From positions 6,099-70,098 of the forward strand of contig NZ_JAVWTF010000003.1 of the NCBI RefSeq assembly GCF_036667855.1: 64,000 nucleotides of DNA, given 5' to 3'. Numbering within the stretch: the first letter of the stretch is position 1; each line of letters opens with the position of its first letter. The DNA is from Aurantimicrobium sp. (GTDB taxonomy: Bacteria > Actinomycetota > Actinomycetes > Actinomycetales > Microbacteriaceae). The position numbers and the translations under genes are program-made. Below are positions 2,885-37,426 of this stretch, piece after piece. A model generated the notes under the pieces. The model searched no databases. It was not told the DNA's origin and saw only the letters and a list, made by a program, of their open reading frames with translations.

Positions 2885-3311
2885 CGCATTGGCACAGAAG
2901 CTCAAAGACAAGCTTCCCAAGAGCGAGCCCAAGGCCCCTAAGGGTCCTGAGGCAAAGCAGGTTCGCCTGAAGCTCGTTTATGTCGACTTCATGTCTGCGC
3001 TCAAAATGTCATTCCTGCTCGGACTGGCGCAATTCATCGTTGTTGTCGTGGGAACCCTGCTTCTCTACTTAGTCTTCGTTCAGACCGGTATTTTCGAGAC
3101 CGCAAACAGCGTTGCAGGTGAGGTTCTGGGAAATAACTCCTTCGATATCAACAGCATTGCTTCCATTGGAAAGACCGTGGGTGCAGCTGCTGCAGTTGGC
3201 CTGGTCAACCTGATTGTGATCACCGTGTTGGGCGCAATTTGTGCAGTTCTGTATAACGCAGCAGCCAAGATTACCGGTGGTCTTTCTATCGGTTTCACCA
3301 ACCAGCAGTAA
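2877..3311 (+). CDS. DUF3566-type membrane protein conserved downstream of gyrA (Rv0007-like position)
   Basis: Lys-rich N-terminus followed by hydrophobic segments; overlaps the gyrA stop; conserved position before tRNA-Ile/Ala in actinobacteria. Confidence 0.7.
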
Positions 3312-3372
3312 AAAAACTCAGGCTCGATTTAGAGATTCGCCGGGATTCCGGTAGTCTCGAATCTGCCTAAGC

Positions 3373-3446
3373 GGGGCTATAGCTCAGGTGGTTAGAGCGC
3401 TTCACTGATAATGAAGAGGTCCCAGGTTCAAGTCCTGGTAGCCCCA
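3373..3446 (+). tRNA. tRNA-Ile (anticodon GAT)
   Basis: Acceptor stem GGGGCTA/TAGCCCC, anticodon arm cttca-CTGATAA-tgaag, T-arm ggttcaagtcc; no encoded CCA. Confidence 0.93.
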
Positions 3447-3490
3447 CGCAATTGCTCTTTATATTTTGATGTAAAGTAGTAAAAGCAATC

Positions 3491-3563
3491 GGGGCCTTAG
3501 CTCAATTGGTAGAGCGCCTGCTTTGCAAGCAGGAGGTCAGGAGTTCGATTCTCCTAGGCTCCA
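3491..3563 (+). tRNA. tRNA-Ala (anticodon TGC)
   Basis: Acceptor stem GGGGCCT/AGGCTCC with G3:U70, anticodon arm cctgc-TTTGCAA-gcagg, T-arm gagttcgattctc; no encoded CCA. Confidence 0.93.
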
Positions 3564-3564
3564 C
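3555..3564 (+). repeat. attL core (taggctccac), last 9 nt of tRNA-Ala plus 1 nt
   Basis: Identical 10-mer recurs at 11430-11439. Confidence 0.75.
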
Positions 3565-3573
3565 TCCCCCCAG

Positions 3574-3599
3574 AAAAACCCCCAGAAATGGGGGTTTTT
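3574..3599 (+). terminator. Rho-independent terminator after tRNA-Ala
   Basis: aaaaaccccc-agaaat-gggggttttt perfect 10-bp stem with a T run. Confidence 0.8.
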
Positions 3600-3618
3600 C
3601 TTTACCCAAAACGCTTTG

Positions 3619-3665
3619 ATAGGCGTAATCTATTGGCGTAATTTTTACAGCTAAATAGGCGTACT
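3619..3665 (+). repeat. Three direct copies of the 11-bp motif AT[A/T]GGCGTA[A/C]T (putative integrase arm-type sites, left arm)
   Basis: ataggcgtaat 3619-3629, attggcgtaat 3632-3642, ataggcgtact 3655-3665; the same motif occurs twice at 11344-11367. Confidence 0.8.
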
Positions 3666-3686
3666 TTCCCAGCTTTCCGAGCTACT

Positions 3687-4973
3687 GTGAAAGCTATGGG
3701 GGAACAAAACAAGCCACGACGGGAAAAGGGAACAGGTGCTTTGTACCTGCGAACCCGCGAAATACCAGGCGAAAAGGACTATGAGTTCTATCAAGCCGTC
3801 CTCGAAGTGAAGACTGAAACAGGCAAACGCAAACGCATTACAGGCAACGGAGCAACAAAATCTCTTGCCCAAGCAAAGCTCCAAGCCAACATAAATAAGT
3901 TTTATCAACGAGAAGCAGAAGGCACCGTCGCAGTTAGGCGGAAGAAGTCTTCGGGCATGACCGTTGAGGAATGGTTAGACGCCTGGTACGAAAGCCTGCA
4001 ATATCGTCGTCTGTCTGAAACGGTGCGAAGAAAATATAAAGGTTTTTACGAACACCACATAGTTCCCCATGTCGGTGATACTCCGCTGGCGGATCTTCAC
4101 GAAGACCAGTTGGAAGAACTATTCGGTACAACGCTCGTAAATAAAAGAAAGAAAATTAACGGCGTTGAGAGCGACCAACCGTTGTTGGGCAACTCTGCTC
4201 GTCGAAACATTTACAAGACGCTGAACACCGCTCTGAAAAGAGCAGTTGATAAGGGTCTTATTTCACGCAACCCGCTTGCACTCGTTCAGGCACCTGAACT
4301 GAAACAAGACCCAGACGAGAATGTGCCCAGCTATGCACATATCGTCCTGTCTCTTATGAAGCGAATGAGGGAGGACAACTACCCAGACTATTGCCGCTTC
4401 TTCTTCATGCTGTTAGGTGTTCGTAAAGCTGAACGAGTAGCAATATCGCTGACGAACATTCGGGGTCTAAAAACAAAAAACCCCACGCTGGTTATTAGTC
4501 AGCAAATAGCCAGGCACGCTGACGGTTCAGGTTGGTACATAAAGCCAGCGACAAAGAACGGCAAAGACAGAATGCTTCCTTTGCCCGAGATATTTGTCGA
4601 AGCACTCAACGACTATCTAAAAGTTCGTACCGCTTGGACAAAATCTCCGAACTGGAAACCAAAGCGAGAGTTTGAGGATCTACTCTTCATTCATGAAGAC
4701 GGTTCTCCGATAACTCTGAACCAGGACAACACAGACTGGCACAAGCTCCTCGACCATTACGGCTACCCGTACTTCCGTAGCCACCTTGTTCGACATGTTG
4801 CTGCAACTGTTCTTGCAGACCAGGAACCACCCGTTCCGTTCCAAGTTATTCAGAACATGCTTGGAAACGGTGTCGCTATGACGCAGTACTACGCCCGCAT
4901 TTCAGCGAAGCAAATGAAGACGCCACTCACGGCATATGGCGAAACTATCGCTGACCGTGTAAAGAAAAAATAA
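3687..4973 (+). CDS. int: Tyrosine recombinase / phage-type integrase
   Basis: N-terminal SAM-like core-binding region; C-terminal catalytic signature HLVRHVAATVLA (HxxR) and MTQYYARIS (Tyr). Adjacent to the tRNA target. Start GTG 3687 or ATG 3696. Confidence 0.9.
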   Translation: MKAMGEQNKPRREKGTGALYLRTREIPGEKDYEFYQAVLEVKTETGKRKRITGNGATKSLAQAKLQANINKFYQREAEGTVAVRRKKSSGMTVEEWLDAWYESLQYRRLSETVRRKYKGFYEHHIVPHVGDTPLADLHEDQLEELFGTTLVNKRKKINGVESDQPLLGNSARRNIYKTLNTALKRAVDKGLISRNPLALVQAPELKQDPDENVPSYAHIVLSLMKRMREDNYPDYCRFFFMLLGVRKAERVAISLTNIRGLKTKNPTLVISQQIARHADGSGWYIKPATKNGKDRMLPLPEIFVEALNDYLKVRTAWTKSPNWKPKREFEDLLFIHEDGSPITLNQDNTDWHKLLDHYGYPYFRSHLVRHVAATVLADQEPPVPFQVIQNMLGNGVAMTQYYARISAKQMKTPLTAYGETIADRVKKK

Positions 4974-5070
4974 AAACTTTTCAGAAAATTCCTGAAACTC
5001 AAAAAACCAGCCGATAAGTATTTCGAGGTCAAAATATGACTTCTAAAAATACGAATGAAAGTTGGTTCTC

Positions 5071-5427
5071 ATGTCCATTAACTATGGCTATTACCTCCCT
5101 CTAAATGCAGCAGATATGTACAAAGAAGTTCGCTTCTTGGACATTTCTCCAAAGACTGACGGTGTTGGTGAGCTTGCTCGTCAAACCACAGACAACGAGG
5201 GAACACCCAAGTGGGTTGTCTCCACACTTGTGAAGTACAAAGACCTCCCACAACAAACAGAGACATTCACTCTCGTTGCTTCACAAGCTGACGCAGAAAA
5301 AATAAACCTCATAGCTGACCTGACACCTATTCGTCTCCTAAACCTTTTAGGTGGCAAATGGTCAAAGGCTGGTGCAGACAAGACTTCTTGGAGCTTCCAG
5401 ATTTCAGGCGTTGAGGTCGCAAAGTAA
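5071..5427 (+). CDS. Hypothetical protein (island ORFan, about 118 aa)
   Basis: Clean ORF co-directional with int; TAATG coupling to the next ORF. No motif I recognise. Start TTG 5062 or ATG 5071. Confidence 0.5.
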   Translation: MSINYGYYLPLNAADMYKEVRFLDISPKTDGVGELARQTTDNEGTPKWVVSTLVKYKDLPQQTETFTLVASQADAEKINLIADLTPIRLLNLLGGKWSKAGADKTSWSFQISGVEVAK

Positions 5428-5938: not shown

Positions 5939-6202
5939 GTGATACCTGCCGATAGAGCAGGTATGACGAACAACGAAAAGGACGCCAAAGAGCAGGGGCT
6001 TGTTATATGTGGCATAAGTGCTCGTGAAGATACAGATATTGGTTTTGCCTCGCCAAAAGAGATAGACCACGCTGTCAGACATATTCCTGAAAGGACAACA
6101 GAACCTGAACTTGGTGAAGATAGGTACTCAATAACTCTTTCGCCTGGCTCTGTGAAGGTTTCGAGAAAACTTGGTTCTCCTGCTCCAAAGTCTGAAAACT
6201 AA
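5939..6202 (+). CDS. Hypothetical 87-aa ORF, in frame with the downstream Rep ORF and separated from it by a single TAA
   Basis: 5939 and 6248 are in the same frame. The only stop between them is TAA 6200-6202, and no start codon occurs in 6203-6247. Confidence 0.4.
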   Translation: MIPADRAGMTNNEKDAKEQGLVICGISAREDTDIGFASPKEIDHAVRHIPERTTEPELGEDRYSITLSPGSVKVSRKLGSPAPKSEN

Positions 6203-6247
6203 CCGAAGACTTCGATAACCAAATGGACTAAACAGTCCAGGTCAAAC

Positions 6248-7150
6248 ATGGTGGCAGTCCTGGCGAGCTTGGACTACAACCCACTTTTTGAGTTTGGTTA
6301 TTCCACTCCTGCCATGCTCACGCTGACTTACCCGAAGTCATGGGAAGTCGTAGCCCCCACCGCAGCGGACACTAAACGCCATATGAGGCTGTTTCGTCAA
6401 AGGTATGAACGAATGTTTGATAGAAAACTTCGTGGTTGTTGGAAGCTGGAATGGCAAGCACGCTCTGCTCCGCACATACACATATTCTGTGTTCCTCCCG
6501 AGATCCCAGAATTTCGTATGTGGTTATCTACGACTTGGGCAGACATAGTTAACGCTCCCGACCCAGAGGAAAAGAAAAAGCACCTCAAAGCGGGTACAGG
6601 TATTGACTACGGCGAAGGCATAAGAGCTTCTGACCCCAAGAGGTTAGCTGTGTATTTCACAAAGCATGGTTCAGCAAACTTCGGAGATAAGGAATATCAG
6701 AACCAACCGCCTGACCTATGGGTGAATGACGGCTCCATAGGTCGCCTGTGGGGGTATTACGGACTTAAAGCAGCGTTAGCAACCGTAGAGGTCGATACGG
6801 CAGACGCTCTCTTCATAGCCCGCACTCTTCGACGGTGGCAAAAAGCCCAGTCAAAACCTCGAAGGGTCAAAGTCTGGCGAACAAACTCTAAAACTGGTGA
6901 AGTGAAGCCACGCTATGTAAAGCGTAAAAAGAAATACCTCAAAAAGCGTTCAGGGTTTATGTCGGTGAATGACGGCTCTGTAATGGGGGAGACATTAGCG
7001 AGAGCACTCGCCGCTCATAAAGGTGAAGAAGTTAGCGTGCGGTCAGCAGACCAAGCAGACGCTCTATCTCCGCAGACTTCTCCTCGACCCGAGCTTCCGC
7101 AACTGCCACTCGTTGTGAAAGAGCGTCTCTCTCGACTGTTAGGTCTTTGA
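6248..7150 (+). CDS. rep: Rolling-circle (HUH) replication initiator protein
   Basis: Motif 1 MLTLTYP, motif 2 PHIHIFCV (HUH), motif 3 AVYFTKHG (Tyr-x-x-K); basic C-terminus. True N-terminus possibly upstream (see findings). Confidence 0.7.
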   Translation: MVAVLASLDYNPLFEFGYSTPAMLTLTYPKSWEVVAPTAADTKRHMRLFRQRYERMFDRKLRGCWKLEWQARSAPHIHIFCVPPEIPEFRMWLSTTWADIVNAPDPEEKKKHLKAGTGIDYGEGIRASDPKRLAVYFTKHGSANFGDKEYQNQPPDLWVNDGSIGRLWGYYGLKAALATVEVDTADALFIARTLRRWQKAQSKPRRVKVWRTNSKTGEVKPRYVKRKKKYLKKRSGFMSVNDGSVMGETLARALAAHKGEEVSVRSADQADALSPQTSPRPELPQLPLVVKERLSRLLGL

Positions 7151-33338: not shown

Positions 33339-33421
33339 GCGCGAGTGGCGAAATGGCAGACGCGCTGGCTTCAGGTGCCAGTGCCCGCAAGGGCGTGGGG
33401 GTTCAAGTCCCCCCTCGCGCA
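33339..33421 (+). tRNA. tRNA-Leu (anticodon CAG), long variable arm
   Basis: Acceptor stem GCGCGAG/CTCGCGC, anticodon arm ctggc-TTCAGGT-gccag, T-arm ggggttcaagtcccc. Same position as leuT after fhaA in mycobacteria. Confidence 0.9.
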
Positions 33422-33427
33422 CGAACG

Positions 33428-34456: not shown

Positions 34457-34750
34457 CTAACCCTGTCGTGCCTTGATGAGCTCGGCTGCGGTCAGTTTGT
34501 GTGGCTTTGCCGTCACCATGTCGCCACTGAGCCCAGAGATCATCAGGCCAGGGTCAACCTCGAGAACGCTCGTAATGCGCAGAAGAGTGTGCAAGTTTGG
34601 ATTCGCGCGACCGCGCTCGATCTTGCCGTAGTTGGACACATGCATTGCAGACATGTGAGCTACATCCTCCTGGCTTAAGCCGAGGCTTTCGCGGCGTTCG
34701 CGGAGCCGGCTTCCCAGTATTTGAGCCGCCGCAGAAGCAATTGAATCCAT
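34457..34750 (-). CDS. XRE-family HTH transcriptional regulator (97 aa), divergent from the MTase operon
   Basis: LGSRLRERRESLGLSQEDVAHMSAMHVSNYGKIERGRANPNLHTLLRI is a canonical XRE/Cro HTH. Confidence 0.85.
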   Translation of the reverse strand: MDSIASAAAQILGSRLRERRESLGLSQEDVAHMSAMHVSNYGKIERGRANPNLHTLLRITSVLEVDPGLMISGLSGDMVTAKPHKLTAAELIKARQG

Positions 34751-34828
34751 ACCTCAAGCGTTCCGGCATCACACTTCATTAACCAGAGTTTAAAAGCCTG
34801 AGGTATTAACGCTACTTTTAACCCCTAA

Positions 34829-34846
34829 CCGCGGCGCCGGCCGCGG
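34829..34846. promoter_or_regulatory. GC-only palindrome ccgcggc-gccg-gccgcgg 16 nt upstream of the MTase start
   Basis: 7-4-7 inverted repeat. The upstream intergenic region also has repeated ATTAAC motifs (about 34778, 34805 and 34817). Confidence 0.45.
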
Positions 34847-34861
34847 CATCAGGGGGATGCG

Positions 34862-36019
34862 GTGGCCAACGAAGACCTGGGAAATGCTCGAAAAGCAAAA
34901 GGCGATGAGTTCTATACGCAGTTCGTCGACATCCAGAAAGAAATGAATGCCTATCTGGAATTCAACCCAGATGTGTTCAGGGGCAAAACTGTTCTTCTGC
35001 CTTGCGATGACCCCGAGTGGAGTAACTTCACCAAGTACTTTGCGCAGAACTTTGAGGCCCTAGGCCTCAAGAAACTGATCAGCACGAGCTATGCCCCGGA
35101 CAGCAAGCCAGACGCTATTCCTTACCAGCCCACACTGTTCGAAATGGAAAGTCCTGGGTATGACCCAGAGAAGACCCAGACCAAGGGAAAGATCTTCACC
35201 CTCACCCACGACAAGACAGGTGACAACGTCATCAACTTTGATGACCTCGAGTGGTCATATCTCGAAGGTGGCGGTGACTTCCGCAGCGAAGAGATCACGA
35301 AGTTACGTGACGAGGCAGACATCGTTGTGACGAACCCACCGTTTTCGTTGTTCAGGGAGTTCCTGGCTTGGCTGGAAGAGGCAAATAAGAGCTATGTGAT
35401 TCTCGGCAATATGAATGCGATTACTTACAAAGAGGTGTTCCCGCTCATAAAGGAGAACAAACTCTGGCTTGGTGCTTCTATTCACTCAGGAGATAGAGAG
35501 TTCCGAATTCCTCCAACAAGCATCACCCGCTCACCATCAAGAAGGACCGATGAGGATGGCAATGTATTTCTGAGAGTCCCAGGAATTCGCTGGTTCACGA
35601 ACCTGGATCATGGTCTTCGCCATGAACCACTTTCTTTGATGTCAGAAAAAGACAACATCAAGTTCAGTAAGCACAAAGAAGTCAAAGGTGTTGGGTATAC
35701 CAATTACGAAAACTTTGATGCCATCGAGGTTCCATTTACAGATTCGATTCCTGCTGACTTCAGTGGATTGATGGGCGTCCCAATAAGTTTCCTCAGTAAA
35801 TACAACCCTGAACAGTTTGAAATATTAGGCAATGGACAAACCATGGCAAATGAACTGGGAATCAAGCCTGTTGGGCAGAAGTTTGTTGACGACTATTACG
35901 CACAGGGAAACAAAGGCCAGATAAGCGCAAAGTGGAACAACCTTGTTTACCGACGTGATGAAACTGTTGTTGTTCCTTATCAACGCATCATCATCAAACA
36001 CAAGCAGGTAAAAAAGTGA
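34862..36019 (+). CDS. N6-adenine DNA methyltransferase, EcoRI-MTase-like family
   Basis: N-terminal [23 protein letters not shown], catalytic [13 protein letters not shown] start preceded by aggggga. Confidence 0.8.
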
Positions 36020-37182
36020 AGACAACCCTGAACCACTACTCCGTCAAGGAACTCTCCGAAGGCTTCGTCTATAACGAGCTCGAGGGTAAAGGTCTTTTTG
36101 GCTTGGCAGGACGTCTAACCATTCAGCCCGAGTACCAGCGCAACTACATCTATGCCGATGGCAAGAGAGACGTTGCTGTGATTGAGTCACTGCTCAAGGG
36201 TTACCCACTTGGATTGATCTATTTCAACAAGGTGCACGAGGACAACCTCGAAGTTCTTGATGGCCAGCAACGCATCACCAGCTTTGGCCGCTTCATCACG
36301 GGCAAGTTCGCTATCAAAGATGAACGTGGCATGGAGCAATATTTCTCTGGCCTCCCAAAGGACAAACAAGAAATCATCCTGAACTCAGAGATTCTTGTCT
36401 ATGAATGTGAAGGCACCGAGAGCGAAATCAAAGAGTGGTTCAAGACCATCAACACTGTTGGTGTTCCTTTGAATGACCAAGAACTTCTCAACGCTGTGTA
36501 TTCAGGGCCGTTTGTGACGGCAGGTAAAGCAGAGTTCAGTAACAGCCAGAACTCCAACATCATGAAGTGGAGTGCCTACGTCAGCGGTTCTGCTCTTCGT
36601 CAGGATTTCTGGGAACGTGCACTGGAGTGGGTGAGCAAAGGCAAGGCCAACATTGGCGGTTACATGAGCCAGCACCGTAATGACCGTGAGATCACGGAAG
36701 TGAAGAATTACTTCACTTCTGTCATTGATTGGGTTTCCTCCGTTTTCACTGATGTGGAGAGCGAGATGCGGGGATTGGAATGGGGTCGCCTTTATGAACA
36801 GTTCCATGGCACTGCCTACAACCCCAGCAAGGTGTCTGAAGCCGTGCAGGCTCTCTATGGCGACTCATATGTGAAGAACCGCAAGGGCATCTGGGAATAC
36901 GTGCTTGGCGGCTCTCAAGAAACCAAGCTGCTTGAGGTGCGGGTCTTCGACGACGCCACGAAGAAGTCGACGTTTGCCGAGCAAACACAAGACGCTCAGA
37001 ATGCCGGGCGTTCCAACTGTTCTCACTGTGCATTGGGGCACGACGCGAACAAAGCCAAAATGTGGAAGCTTGAGGAAATGGATGCCGACCACGTTGCGGC
37101 GTGGAGCAAGGGCGGTGCTACCTCGGCCGAAAACTGCGAGTTGCTTTGTAAGACGCACAACCGAGCTAAAGGTAATCGCTAG
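36016..37182 (+). CDS. DUF262 (ParB/GmrS-like) domain protein with C-terminal HNH endonuclease
   Basis: [11 protein letters not shown] and LDGQQRITS (DUF262). C-terminal CSHCALGHD...[32 protein letters not shown] (HNH). GTGA overlap with the MTase stop. Confidence 0.85.
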
Positions 37183-37190
37183 CAAAAAGC

Positions 37191-37221
37191 AAAGCCTCTG
37201 GCGAGAAGGGCCAGAGGCTTT
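37191..37221 (+). terminator. Terminator hairpin after the DUF262-HNH gene
   Basis: aaagcctctggc-gagaagg-gccagaggcttt. Confidence 0.65.
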
Positions 37222-37426
37222 ACATATGAAGCTTAATTGAACAAGTTCCCAAAGCAAATACCTTCATAGACACTTAATCCTTCGGCGCTCAATAAAGACC
37301 ACGGGCAATCCCTCATCAAAGTGTTCACCACATCGTTATCGACCAATAGTCTGCTTTTGCTCAGCTAACTGCCAGAATTGCAGTGCGCACCGTTGCGCAC
37401 CACCTCATCACTAAGGAGTCATTTTC

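Follow-up and report, generated by a model that had tools for sequence, protein, structure and literature searches.

An EcoRI-family methyltransferase with exchangeable cassettes paired with a conserved DUF262-HNH nuclease: a candidate restriction-modification architecture in Aurantimicrobium and beyond

The DUF262 systems named in reviews are only GmrSD, BrxU, SspE, Menshen, Dazbog and PD-T4-2. Among them GmrSD and BrxU, two Type IV enzymes, show documented cleavage stimulated by nucleoside triphosphates (NTP). The EcoRI restriction-modification (R-M) system pairs a methyltransferase, M.EcoRI, with the nuclease R.EcoRI. Here, we describe a locus at which an EcoRI-family methyltransferase (M) is joined to a nuclease (R) made of a DUF262 and an HNH domain. 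We found no paper in the literature characterising a DUF262-HNH enzyme paired with an EcoRI-like methylase. The locus lies in a stretch of 64,000 nucleotides of Aurantimicrobium sp. (contig NZ_JAVWTF010000003.1, positions 6,099 to 70,098), which we call the window. The pair is a real and widespread two-gene R-M module. Our tentative reading, to which we give a little less than even credence, is that the locus is an R-M operon in which M alone would set the specificity and R would be a specificity-free and probably NTP-gated effector. This reading is suggested above all by a contrast between the two genes: M exchanges two cassettes among very different types, whereas its partner R stays constant.

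Exchangeable cassettes in M and a constant R

M matches the Pfam model PF13651 (EcoRI_methylase) at 3e-122, over profile positions 2-345 of 345 and with 408.7 bits against a gathering cut-off of 26.4, and the PADLOC model MTase_II at 7e-89. It is 42-46% identical, over its full length, to the authentic M.EcoRI that adjoins R.EcoRI on plasmid pU90-3, and the DEFYTQ and CDDP blocks are invariant in the alignment that includes this enzyme. The GTG start of R at 36016 overlaps the TGA stop of M at 36017-36019, and this start is consistent with the N-termini of R homologues. A previous sequence-only reading of this DNA had described these open reading frames (ORFs), their motifs and the GTGA overlap, and the list of ORFs and the sequence agree with it. 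The elements of the pair in the window are the following:

34862-36019, + strand: EcoRI-family gamma-class N6-adenine DNA methyltransferase (M), 385 aa, assigned from Pfam, PADLOC and identity to M.EcoRI
35333-35344, + strand: catalytic motif IV of M, NPPF, aa 158-161, read from the sequence and invariant in the alignment
35474-35590, + strand: cassette VR1 of M, aa 205-243, a putative target-recognition element
35828-35977, + strand: cassette VR2 of M, aa 323-372, a second putative target-recognition element
36016-36019, + strand: GTGA overlap of the M stop and the R start (translational coupling), read from the sequence
36016-37182, + strand: nuclease R, 388 aa, with a DUF262 (ParB/Srx-like NTPase) domain, a helical region and an HNH domain, assigned from Pfam, PADLOC, an AlphaFold2 (AF2) model and Foldseek
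36118-36501, + strand: DUF262/GmrSD_N domain of R, aa 35-162, with the QR motif (Q41 R42) and DGQQR
36259-36273, + strand: DGQQR of R, aa 82-86
37018-37179, + strand: HNH nuclease of R, with the Cys4 zinc site C335, C338, C374, C378, the catalytic D358-H359, and N373 and N382

We compared 66 complete M-R pairs. The pairwise identity of R has a median of 0.77, with no hypervariable block and none below about 0.6. The core of M is similar (median 0.73), whereas the medians drop to 0.23 in VR1 and 0.19 in VR2. Identities in these cassettes are bimodal: different types share about 0.1-0.3, and members of one type share 0.6-0.95, even when they come from different phyla. We count 12 types of VR1 and about 25 of VR2, which occur in 53 combinations in the 66 loci and form 23 four-gamete quartets. 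Hence, VR1 and VR2 recombine and assort independently. R identity is 0.771 between pairs sharing a VR1 type and 0.768 between pairs with different types, and its Spearman correlation with VR1 identity is 0.03. No column of R covaries with VR1 type, since the highest mutual-information score (AMI, 0.15) equals the permutation maximum.

Exchange can be followed at a single chromosomal site. Two loci are syntenic with that of the window, one (L006) in an actinobacterial metagenome-assembled genome (MAG) and the other (L007) in A. minutum MWH-Mo2. Between these syntenic Aurantimicrobium loci, all at one tRNA-Leu, R is 91-93% identical. Yet VR2 was swapped for another type in L006, and VR1 and VR2 were both swapped in L007, while the rest of M is nearly identical, with long stretches that do not differ at all. 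The blastn alignment of L006 to the window breaks exactly at nucleotides 963-1121 of M.

The position of VR1 hints at its role. It ends just before the invariant R253-H254, the counterpart of H235 in mature M.EcoRI; when that residue is mutated, DNA intercalation and specificity change (PMC2396439). VR1 is thus predicted to sit in the DNA-contacting part of M. In some members of the family, VR1 or VR2 is almost the same as in M.EcoRI. The M of the window carries other types of both, so that, judging from its sequence, specificity for GAATTC cannot be assumed.

What happens to the cassettes when the partner nuclease recognises DNA itself? As controls we took methylases paired with classical R.EcoRI nucleases of the PD-(D/E)XK fold, from E. 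coli, Klebsiella and Leuconostoc. Compared with those of E. coli, the control nucleases show identities of 91% and 65% and the methylases of 83% and 66%. Over this range VR1 and VR2 are each of one type and diverge no faster than the core. This suggests that EcoRI-family cassettes are frozen next to a self-recognising nuclease and free to change next to a DUF262-HNH partner. One prophage or viral contig (L119) even carries two tandem paralogues of M (1636-2766 and 2889-4001) followed by a single R (4001-5161). Their first ~65 residues are identical, and their VR1 and VR2 are both of different types.

Domains of R and its linkage to M

R matches PF03235 (GmrSD_N, i.e. DUF262) at 4.4e-22 over aa 35-162 and PF01844 (HNH) at 1e-6, and Pfam gives no match to PF07510 (DUF1524) in this protein, as the sequence-only reading had it. 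In a family alignment of 55 sequences, reaching down to 33% identity, Q41, R42, D82, G83 and R86 do not vary, and conservation at Q84 and Q85 is at least 90%. The C-terminal motif reads CSHC...DADHV..WSKGG...NCELLC..HNRAKGN, and its catalytic and zinc residues are invariant family-wide, again down to 33% identity. These patterns indicate that NTP binding and cleavage are both likely to be under selection, and they make NTP dependence of R plausible.

A first AF2 model of R, from a shallow alignment, had a mean confidence score (pLDDT) of 54.6 and was unusable; with an alignment of 96 sequences the score rose to 84.6. Foldseek searches of the PDB with the latter model returned only weak, domain-level matches, namely to ParB bound to cytidine triphosphate (CTP; probability 0.91), to the Gme HNH nickase (4h9d; probability 0.98), to BrxU, to SspE (E 0.3) and to McrA. 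Nothing in the PDB matched at E 0.001 or better, and no known restriction-enzyme structure is alike. A search of PDB sequences with R gave BrxU only, at E 0.17.

R does have a label in existing collections. It matches PDLC03418, the REBASE-style 'REase_II' (Type II restriction enzyme) model of PADLOC-DB, from end to end (profile 1-371 of 372) at 1e-85. The Gardnerella homologue matches the same model at 1.5e-169, and homologues from Gardnerella, Campylobacter, Mammaliicoccus and Aeromonas score 456-562 bits. The seeds of the model appear to have been drawn from a clade of proteins of 360-364 aa, 35-45% identical to the R of the window. NCBIfam holds no model for M, for R or for the product of a neighbouring DUF3800 gene. 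Since R matches REase_II and M matches MTase_II, standard defence finders would label the locus an ordinary Type II R-M system. The sequence-only reading had proposed that the pair follows a logic different from that of the characterised DUF262 enzymes. This part of it is strengthened by the shuffling of cassettes in M against a constant R, but it must be tempered by the fact that the R family had already been filed as REase_II.

Relatives of R are numerous. There are at least 8000 close ones in databases, and R matches 414 clusters (at 50% identity) at E <=1e-30 and 5112 at E <=1e-3. In a scan taking one genome per species, relatives were found in at least 585 species genomes, and they occur in 207 viral contigs and on many plasmids. 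We examined as loci the best 80 of these at least 585 genomes and 80 contigs of the 207 hits in IMG/VR. The R proteins of the best 80 genomes are 71-93% identical to that of the window and come from Actinomycetota, Bacteroidota, Patescibacteria, Chloroflexota, Proteobacteria, Firmicutes, Omnitrophota, Elusimicrobiota, Verrucomicrobia and Spirochaetes.

The linkage to M is nearly obligate in this set. In 71 of the 80 genome loci the gene immediately upstream of R, in the same orientation, encodes an EcoRI-family methylase, and in 7 more a single gene separates the upstream methylase from R. None of the genome loci with enough flank is clearly without M, and the rest of the 80 end too near R to judge. 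In viral contigs, M is on the same strand in 72 of the 75 loci that could be judged, and M is directly followed by R in 60 of 80. The pair is also present on plasmids of Moraxella, Arthrobacter, Rhodococcus, Enterococcus faecium, lactobacilli and others, and in the cultured Flavobacterium phage laban6-1. The partnership is kept in clades that are only 35-45% identical, for example in Gardnerella vaginalis, Macrococcoides, Variovorax, Aeromonas and Mammaliicoccus. The order is reversed, R then M, at one locus. An overlap of 4 nucleotides is the commonest junction (30 of the 66 complete pairs), and in about 50 of the 66 the two genes lie within 1 nucleotide of each other. The two families thus co-occur far beyond the genome of the window. 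The earlier proposal that R belongs to a methylase-linked DUF262-HNH module, and is not a solitary Type IV enzyme, is borne out by near-obligate co-occurrence across phyla, plasmids and phages.

The few loci where R stands without a working neighbour are also informative. Three prophage loci (L115, L137 and L142) have an intact R, no M within 4 kb, and a gene for a CI/LexA-like repressor in the position of M. In a Cohnella MAG (L040) M is truncated and frameshifted (4414-4965) and R is intact. Finally, protein P0189 (L096:5001-7067, 688 aa) is a natural fusion of a degenerate M-like domain with an intact DUF262-HNH. In its M domain NPPF has become FPSF and DEFYTQ is lost. The contig has 33% G+C and uses genetic code 4, the 688-aa fusion occurs on two contigs, and the flanks of L096 contain no other methylase. 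These loci suggest that R is tolerated without an adjacent working M, which fits an R that is inert alone.

The junction between M and R is, in some genome and viral loci, a recurrent insertion site for single genes of defence type (L013:3109-4938, L024:4156-5004, L045:3950-4999, L063:3627-4985, L067:610-1212, L019:50-1093, L042:228-659 and L140:3127-3978). The inserted genes include OLD-like AAA_15+TOPRIM, RhuM, Bro-N, PIN_8, MUG113/T5orf172, Shedu SduA_C and GIY-YIG, a pattern reminiscent of the accessory genes nested within operons of Type I R-M systems. In Gardnerella vaginalis (L086-L088) the module is flanked by an ORF of 57-65 aa before M and by a 264-aa gene without Pfam match after R (3636-3833 and 6106-6900). 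Both recur in three assemblies and may be further parts of the module.

Possible mechanisms and rival explanations

How might such a module work? We propose that M would mark host DNA with N6-methyladenine (m6A), and that sequence specificity would lie in M alone, through the exchangeable VR1 and VR2 of its C-terminal half. The co-translated R would be an effector without specificity. Its ParB-like NTP-binding domain would probably gate or license the HNH nuclease, and R would attack DNA that lacks the mark of M. It would most likely do so together with M at unmodified sites, in a way similar to Type III systems, where 'Mod' recognises and 'Res' cleaves in an NTP-dependent manner. The core of the argument is that, if VR1 and VR2 are recognition cassettes, then the M partners of near-identical R proteins differ in specificity, and R cannot have a matching specificity of its own. 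A dependence of R on M would further explain the translational coupling, the M-R fusion, why a second M would be useful and why an R that lacks a working M is tolerated. We favour an R recruited or licensed by M over an R that senses marks. We infer from sequence comparison the four elements of this scheme: specificity set by VR1 and VR2, dependence of R on M, NTP gating and anti-phage function. In its evolutionary behaviour the module seems unlike classical Type II systems. One might go further and see in it a distinct architectural type of R-M system, where an EcoRI-family 'Mod' with two swappable cassettes would set both methylation and restriction, and a ParB-like NTPase-HNH 'Res' without specificity would be recruited or licensed at unmodified sites. 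By analogy with ParB and CTP, this 'Res' may clamp onto DNA or slide along it under the control of NTP, and so communicate over a distance. We give this stronger claim a substantial chance, though one clearly below even.

Several points count against a specificity carried by M alone. The role given to VR1 and VR2 is argued from analogy with the shuffling of target-recognition domains (TRDs) in Type I, III and IIG enzymes and from proximity to H235, and the mosaicism could come from recombination among diverged alleles of a single specificity. The control set has three members. A search of PDB sequences with M gave no match, there being no solved structure of an EcoRI-family methylase. The cases of R alone or with a dead M are few and come mostly from MAGs and viral contigs, where a protecting methylase could be encoded elsewhere in the genome. 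And PADLOC files the family under Type II: if the source enzyme of that model were a characterised sequence-specific nuclease, this would add weight to a classical explanation.

Such a classical Type II system (IIP or IIS), in which R itself recognises one fixed sequence that every partner M protects, is unlikely in our view but deserves serious consideration. Besides the full-length match of R to REase_II, the two-gene layout is typical, there is a regulator resembling a controller (C) protein, plasmids and phages carry the module, and M is a close relative of M.EcoRI. Even the high conservation of R would suit a single specificity. Yet, all 12 VR1 types and about 25 VR2 types, unalignable with one another but each strongly conserved internally across phyla, would have to serve one and the same specificity, when true EcoRI systems hold both cassette regions constant together with R. 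It would also make the tandem paralogues of L119 redundant in spite of their different cassettes, and an intact R without an adjacent working M should be lethal. We find it somewhat harder to believe that R reads m6A status regardless of sequence, has no physical need of M, and cuts or nicks unmarked DNA. One version of this would be a ParB-like scanning clamp driven by NTP and switched off by m6A; another, an NTPase similar to SspE and triggered by the self mark. A constant R with changing M specificities is explained equally well in this way. Moreover, DUF262 domains sense modified DNA in GmrSD, BrxU and SspE, the last of which depends on the phosphorothioate (PT) mark of its host, and the nearest structural matches of the N-terminal domain of R are CTP-bound ParB clamps and BrxU. 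But an R restrained by m6A should become toxic upon loss of M, and there are loci with R only, with a truncated M and with a fused dead M. Sparse sites of 5-6 bp would in addition need to protect over long ranges, and tight translational coupling and one M-R fusion point to a physical partnership.

The module might, finally, have no part in host defence. It could be a selfish element for addiction or homing, in which the HNH nuclease would promote spread and the methylase would confer immunity; or R could be a modification-dependent nuclease of Type IV that happens to lie beside an unrelated methylase. Many homing enzymes are indeed HNH nucleases, the module has moved widely among phyla, plasmids and phages, and the characterised DUF262 enzymes are of Type IV. 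Still, we hold this to be very improbable. Near-obligate linkage to a single methylase family over deep divergence is unexpected for an unrelated neighbour, and we rejected the Type IV reading of R because of this obligate linkage. A nuclease that acted on m6A would kill its own host if it were coupled to an m6A methylase. The module was also stably inherited at one chromosomal site through speciation in Aurantimicrobium, and known defence genes were repeatedly inserted between M and R, as in R-M operons. An operon where M sets the specificity and licenses R thus remains the reading that we prefer, at the strength given at the outset.

The module in Aurantimicrobium and among known systems

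In the window, the pair is accompanied by a regulator gene and lies close to a tRNA gene. The features around M and R are:

33339-33422, + strand: tRNA-Leu(CAG), the landmark adjoining the regulator, M and R in the Aurantimicrobium lineage, the same tRNA being found in L006 and L007
33530-34318: DUF3800 gene (Pfam DUF3800), between the tRNA-Leu and the R-M module
34457-34750, - strand: XRE/HTH_3 (helix-turn-helix, HTH) regulator, 97 aa, divergent from the M-R operon and a candidate controller (C-like) protein (Pfam HTH_3 at 1.5e-13)
34751-34861, no strand: divergent control region of 111 bp between the HTH gene and M, with inverted repeats and conservation
34749-34762/34793-34806 and 34785-34796/34815-34826: inverted repeats in the control region
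34829-34846: GC hairpin CCGCGGC-N4-GCCGCGG, directly 5' of the GGGGGA ribosome-binding site of M
37189-37223, no strand: terminator-like hairpin (an inverted repeat) directly 3' of the R stop

The G+C content is 0.44-0.50 across the genes of the module and 0.55-0.58 in the flanks. None of the ORFs of the window is an integrase and no att-type direct repeats flank the islet. This agrees with the AT-richer, integrase-less islet at a tRNA-Leu of the sequence-only reading. The closest database proteins come from Aurantimicrobium, a member of the Microbacteriaceae. In both L006 and L007 the HTH-M-R module lies beside the same tRNA-Leu, and its nucleotide identity between the window and these loci (78-82%) matches that of the core genes on either side (77-81%). 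The module has hence been at this site for long and did not arrive recently. The DUF3800 gene has a different history. It had been taken as a sign of a defence island, but it is missing from L006 and L007, which are otherwise syntenic and keep the tRNA-Leu and HTH-M-R. We thus rejected it as a component of the system; the gene was inserted separately, as a small unit, beside this tRNA-Leu.

The HTH protein matches the PADLOC model Control_protein at 1.5e-10. L006 and L007 encode versions of it with 89-91% identity, and the other 78 genome loci lack it. Its gene is divergent, rather than upstream of R and co-oriented with it, and is present in three related genomes only. The previously noted combination of an EcoRI-like methylase and a divergent XRE regulator is thus recovered in the window (PF13651 and HTH_3), but as a part of the operon's make-up the regulator is restricted to the Aurantimicrobium lineage. 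The control region has a mean column identity of 93% among the window, L006 and L007, against about 80% for coding DNA. The arms of the hairpin at 34829-34846 keep their pairing through a compensatory change from G:C to A:T in L006 and L007. This conservation, together with the inverted repeats and the covarying hairpin, fits a regulatory role of the region between the HTH gene and M. In Aurantimicrobium only, the divergent regulator and the highly conserved control region might thus tune the expression of M and R.

The composition of the window was also searched for traces of a recognition site. GAATTC and CAATTG are not depleted in its 64 kb (for GAATTC, 13 observed and 10.7 expected), which is uninformative on the site recognised. 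Most 4-bp palindromes are depleted, with TGCA, CATG, CTAG, AATT and GGCC at z-scores of -5 to -6; among 6-mers the strongest depletion is that of GGTACC (3 observed vs 9.8 expected). These depletions could be the trace of other restriction systems in the host. Avoidance of 4-mer and 6-mer palindromes in the window was rejected as a clue to the recognition site, as only generic 4-mer depletion was found.

If M alone sets the specificity, an abundant family has been mis-filed as Type II, one that extends to at least 585 species in more than 10 phyla, more than 200 viral contigs and many plasmids. In function it would parallel Type III systems while being built from unrelated proteins, and it would be present in hundreds of species and phages. 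It would also offer a new route to programmable restriction, since two small cassettes in a methylase of 385 aa would retarget an unchanged nuclease, which is attractive for enzyme engineering. Such exchanges would help explain the rapid turnover of specificities in streamlined freshwater bacteria and in organisms of the Candidate Phyla Radiation (CPR). ParB-like NTPase domains would have wider roles in immunity, with here the first m6A-linked counterpart of the PT-linked SspE. Under the classical explanation too, R would stand for a large uncharacterised family of HNH restriction enzymes with a conserved NTP-binding domain.

How does the module compare with known systems? With EcoRI it shares M, a full-length homologue of M.EcoRI with the same motifs. 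But R is unrelated to R.EcoRI, which has a PD-(D/E)XK fold, the order is M then R in the window and R then M in EcoRI, and the cassettes, fixed in EcoRI-type pairs, are shuffled in DUF262-HNH pairs. The separate and adjacent genes for a methylase and an endonuclease recall classical Type II systems in general. Like GmrSD and BrxU, Type IV enzymes made of DUF262 and DUF1524, R has a DUF262 domain with QR and DGQQR, followed by a helical region and a His-Me-finger nuclease. Its C-terminus is nevertheless a zinc-bound HNH (PF01844) and not DUF1524, and it is about 200 aa shorter. GmrSD and BrxU are moreover solitary and attack modified DNA, whereas R is obligately linked to a methylase. In SspABCD-SspE, too, a DUF262-nuclease effector works with a DNA-modification module of the host, and the activity of SspE depends on the mark. 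There, however, the mark is a phosphorothioate made by a machine of four proteins, instead of m6A made by a single methylase, and SspE, to which R is weakly similar, has a DUF1524 domain and a separate PT-sensing patch. Type III systems such as EcoP15I Mod/Res are not homologous to the module. Their Mod belongs to the beta class of methylases and their Res joins an SF2 helicase to a PD-(D/E)XK nuclease, where the window has a gamma-class EcoRI-family methylase and a ParB-like NTPase-HNH protein whose dependence on M we infer. The likeness to Type III, and to the TRD shuffling of hsdS in Type I systems, would lie instead in the proposed logic: a modification subunit with exchangeable cassettes would direct a conserved, NTP-dependent nuclease, which by itself would have no specificity and do no harm.

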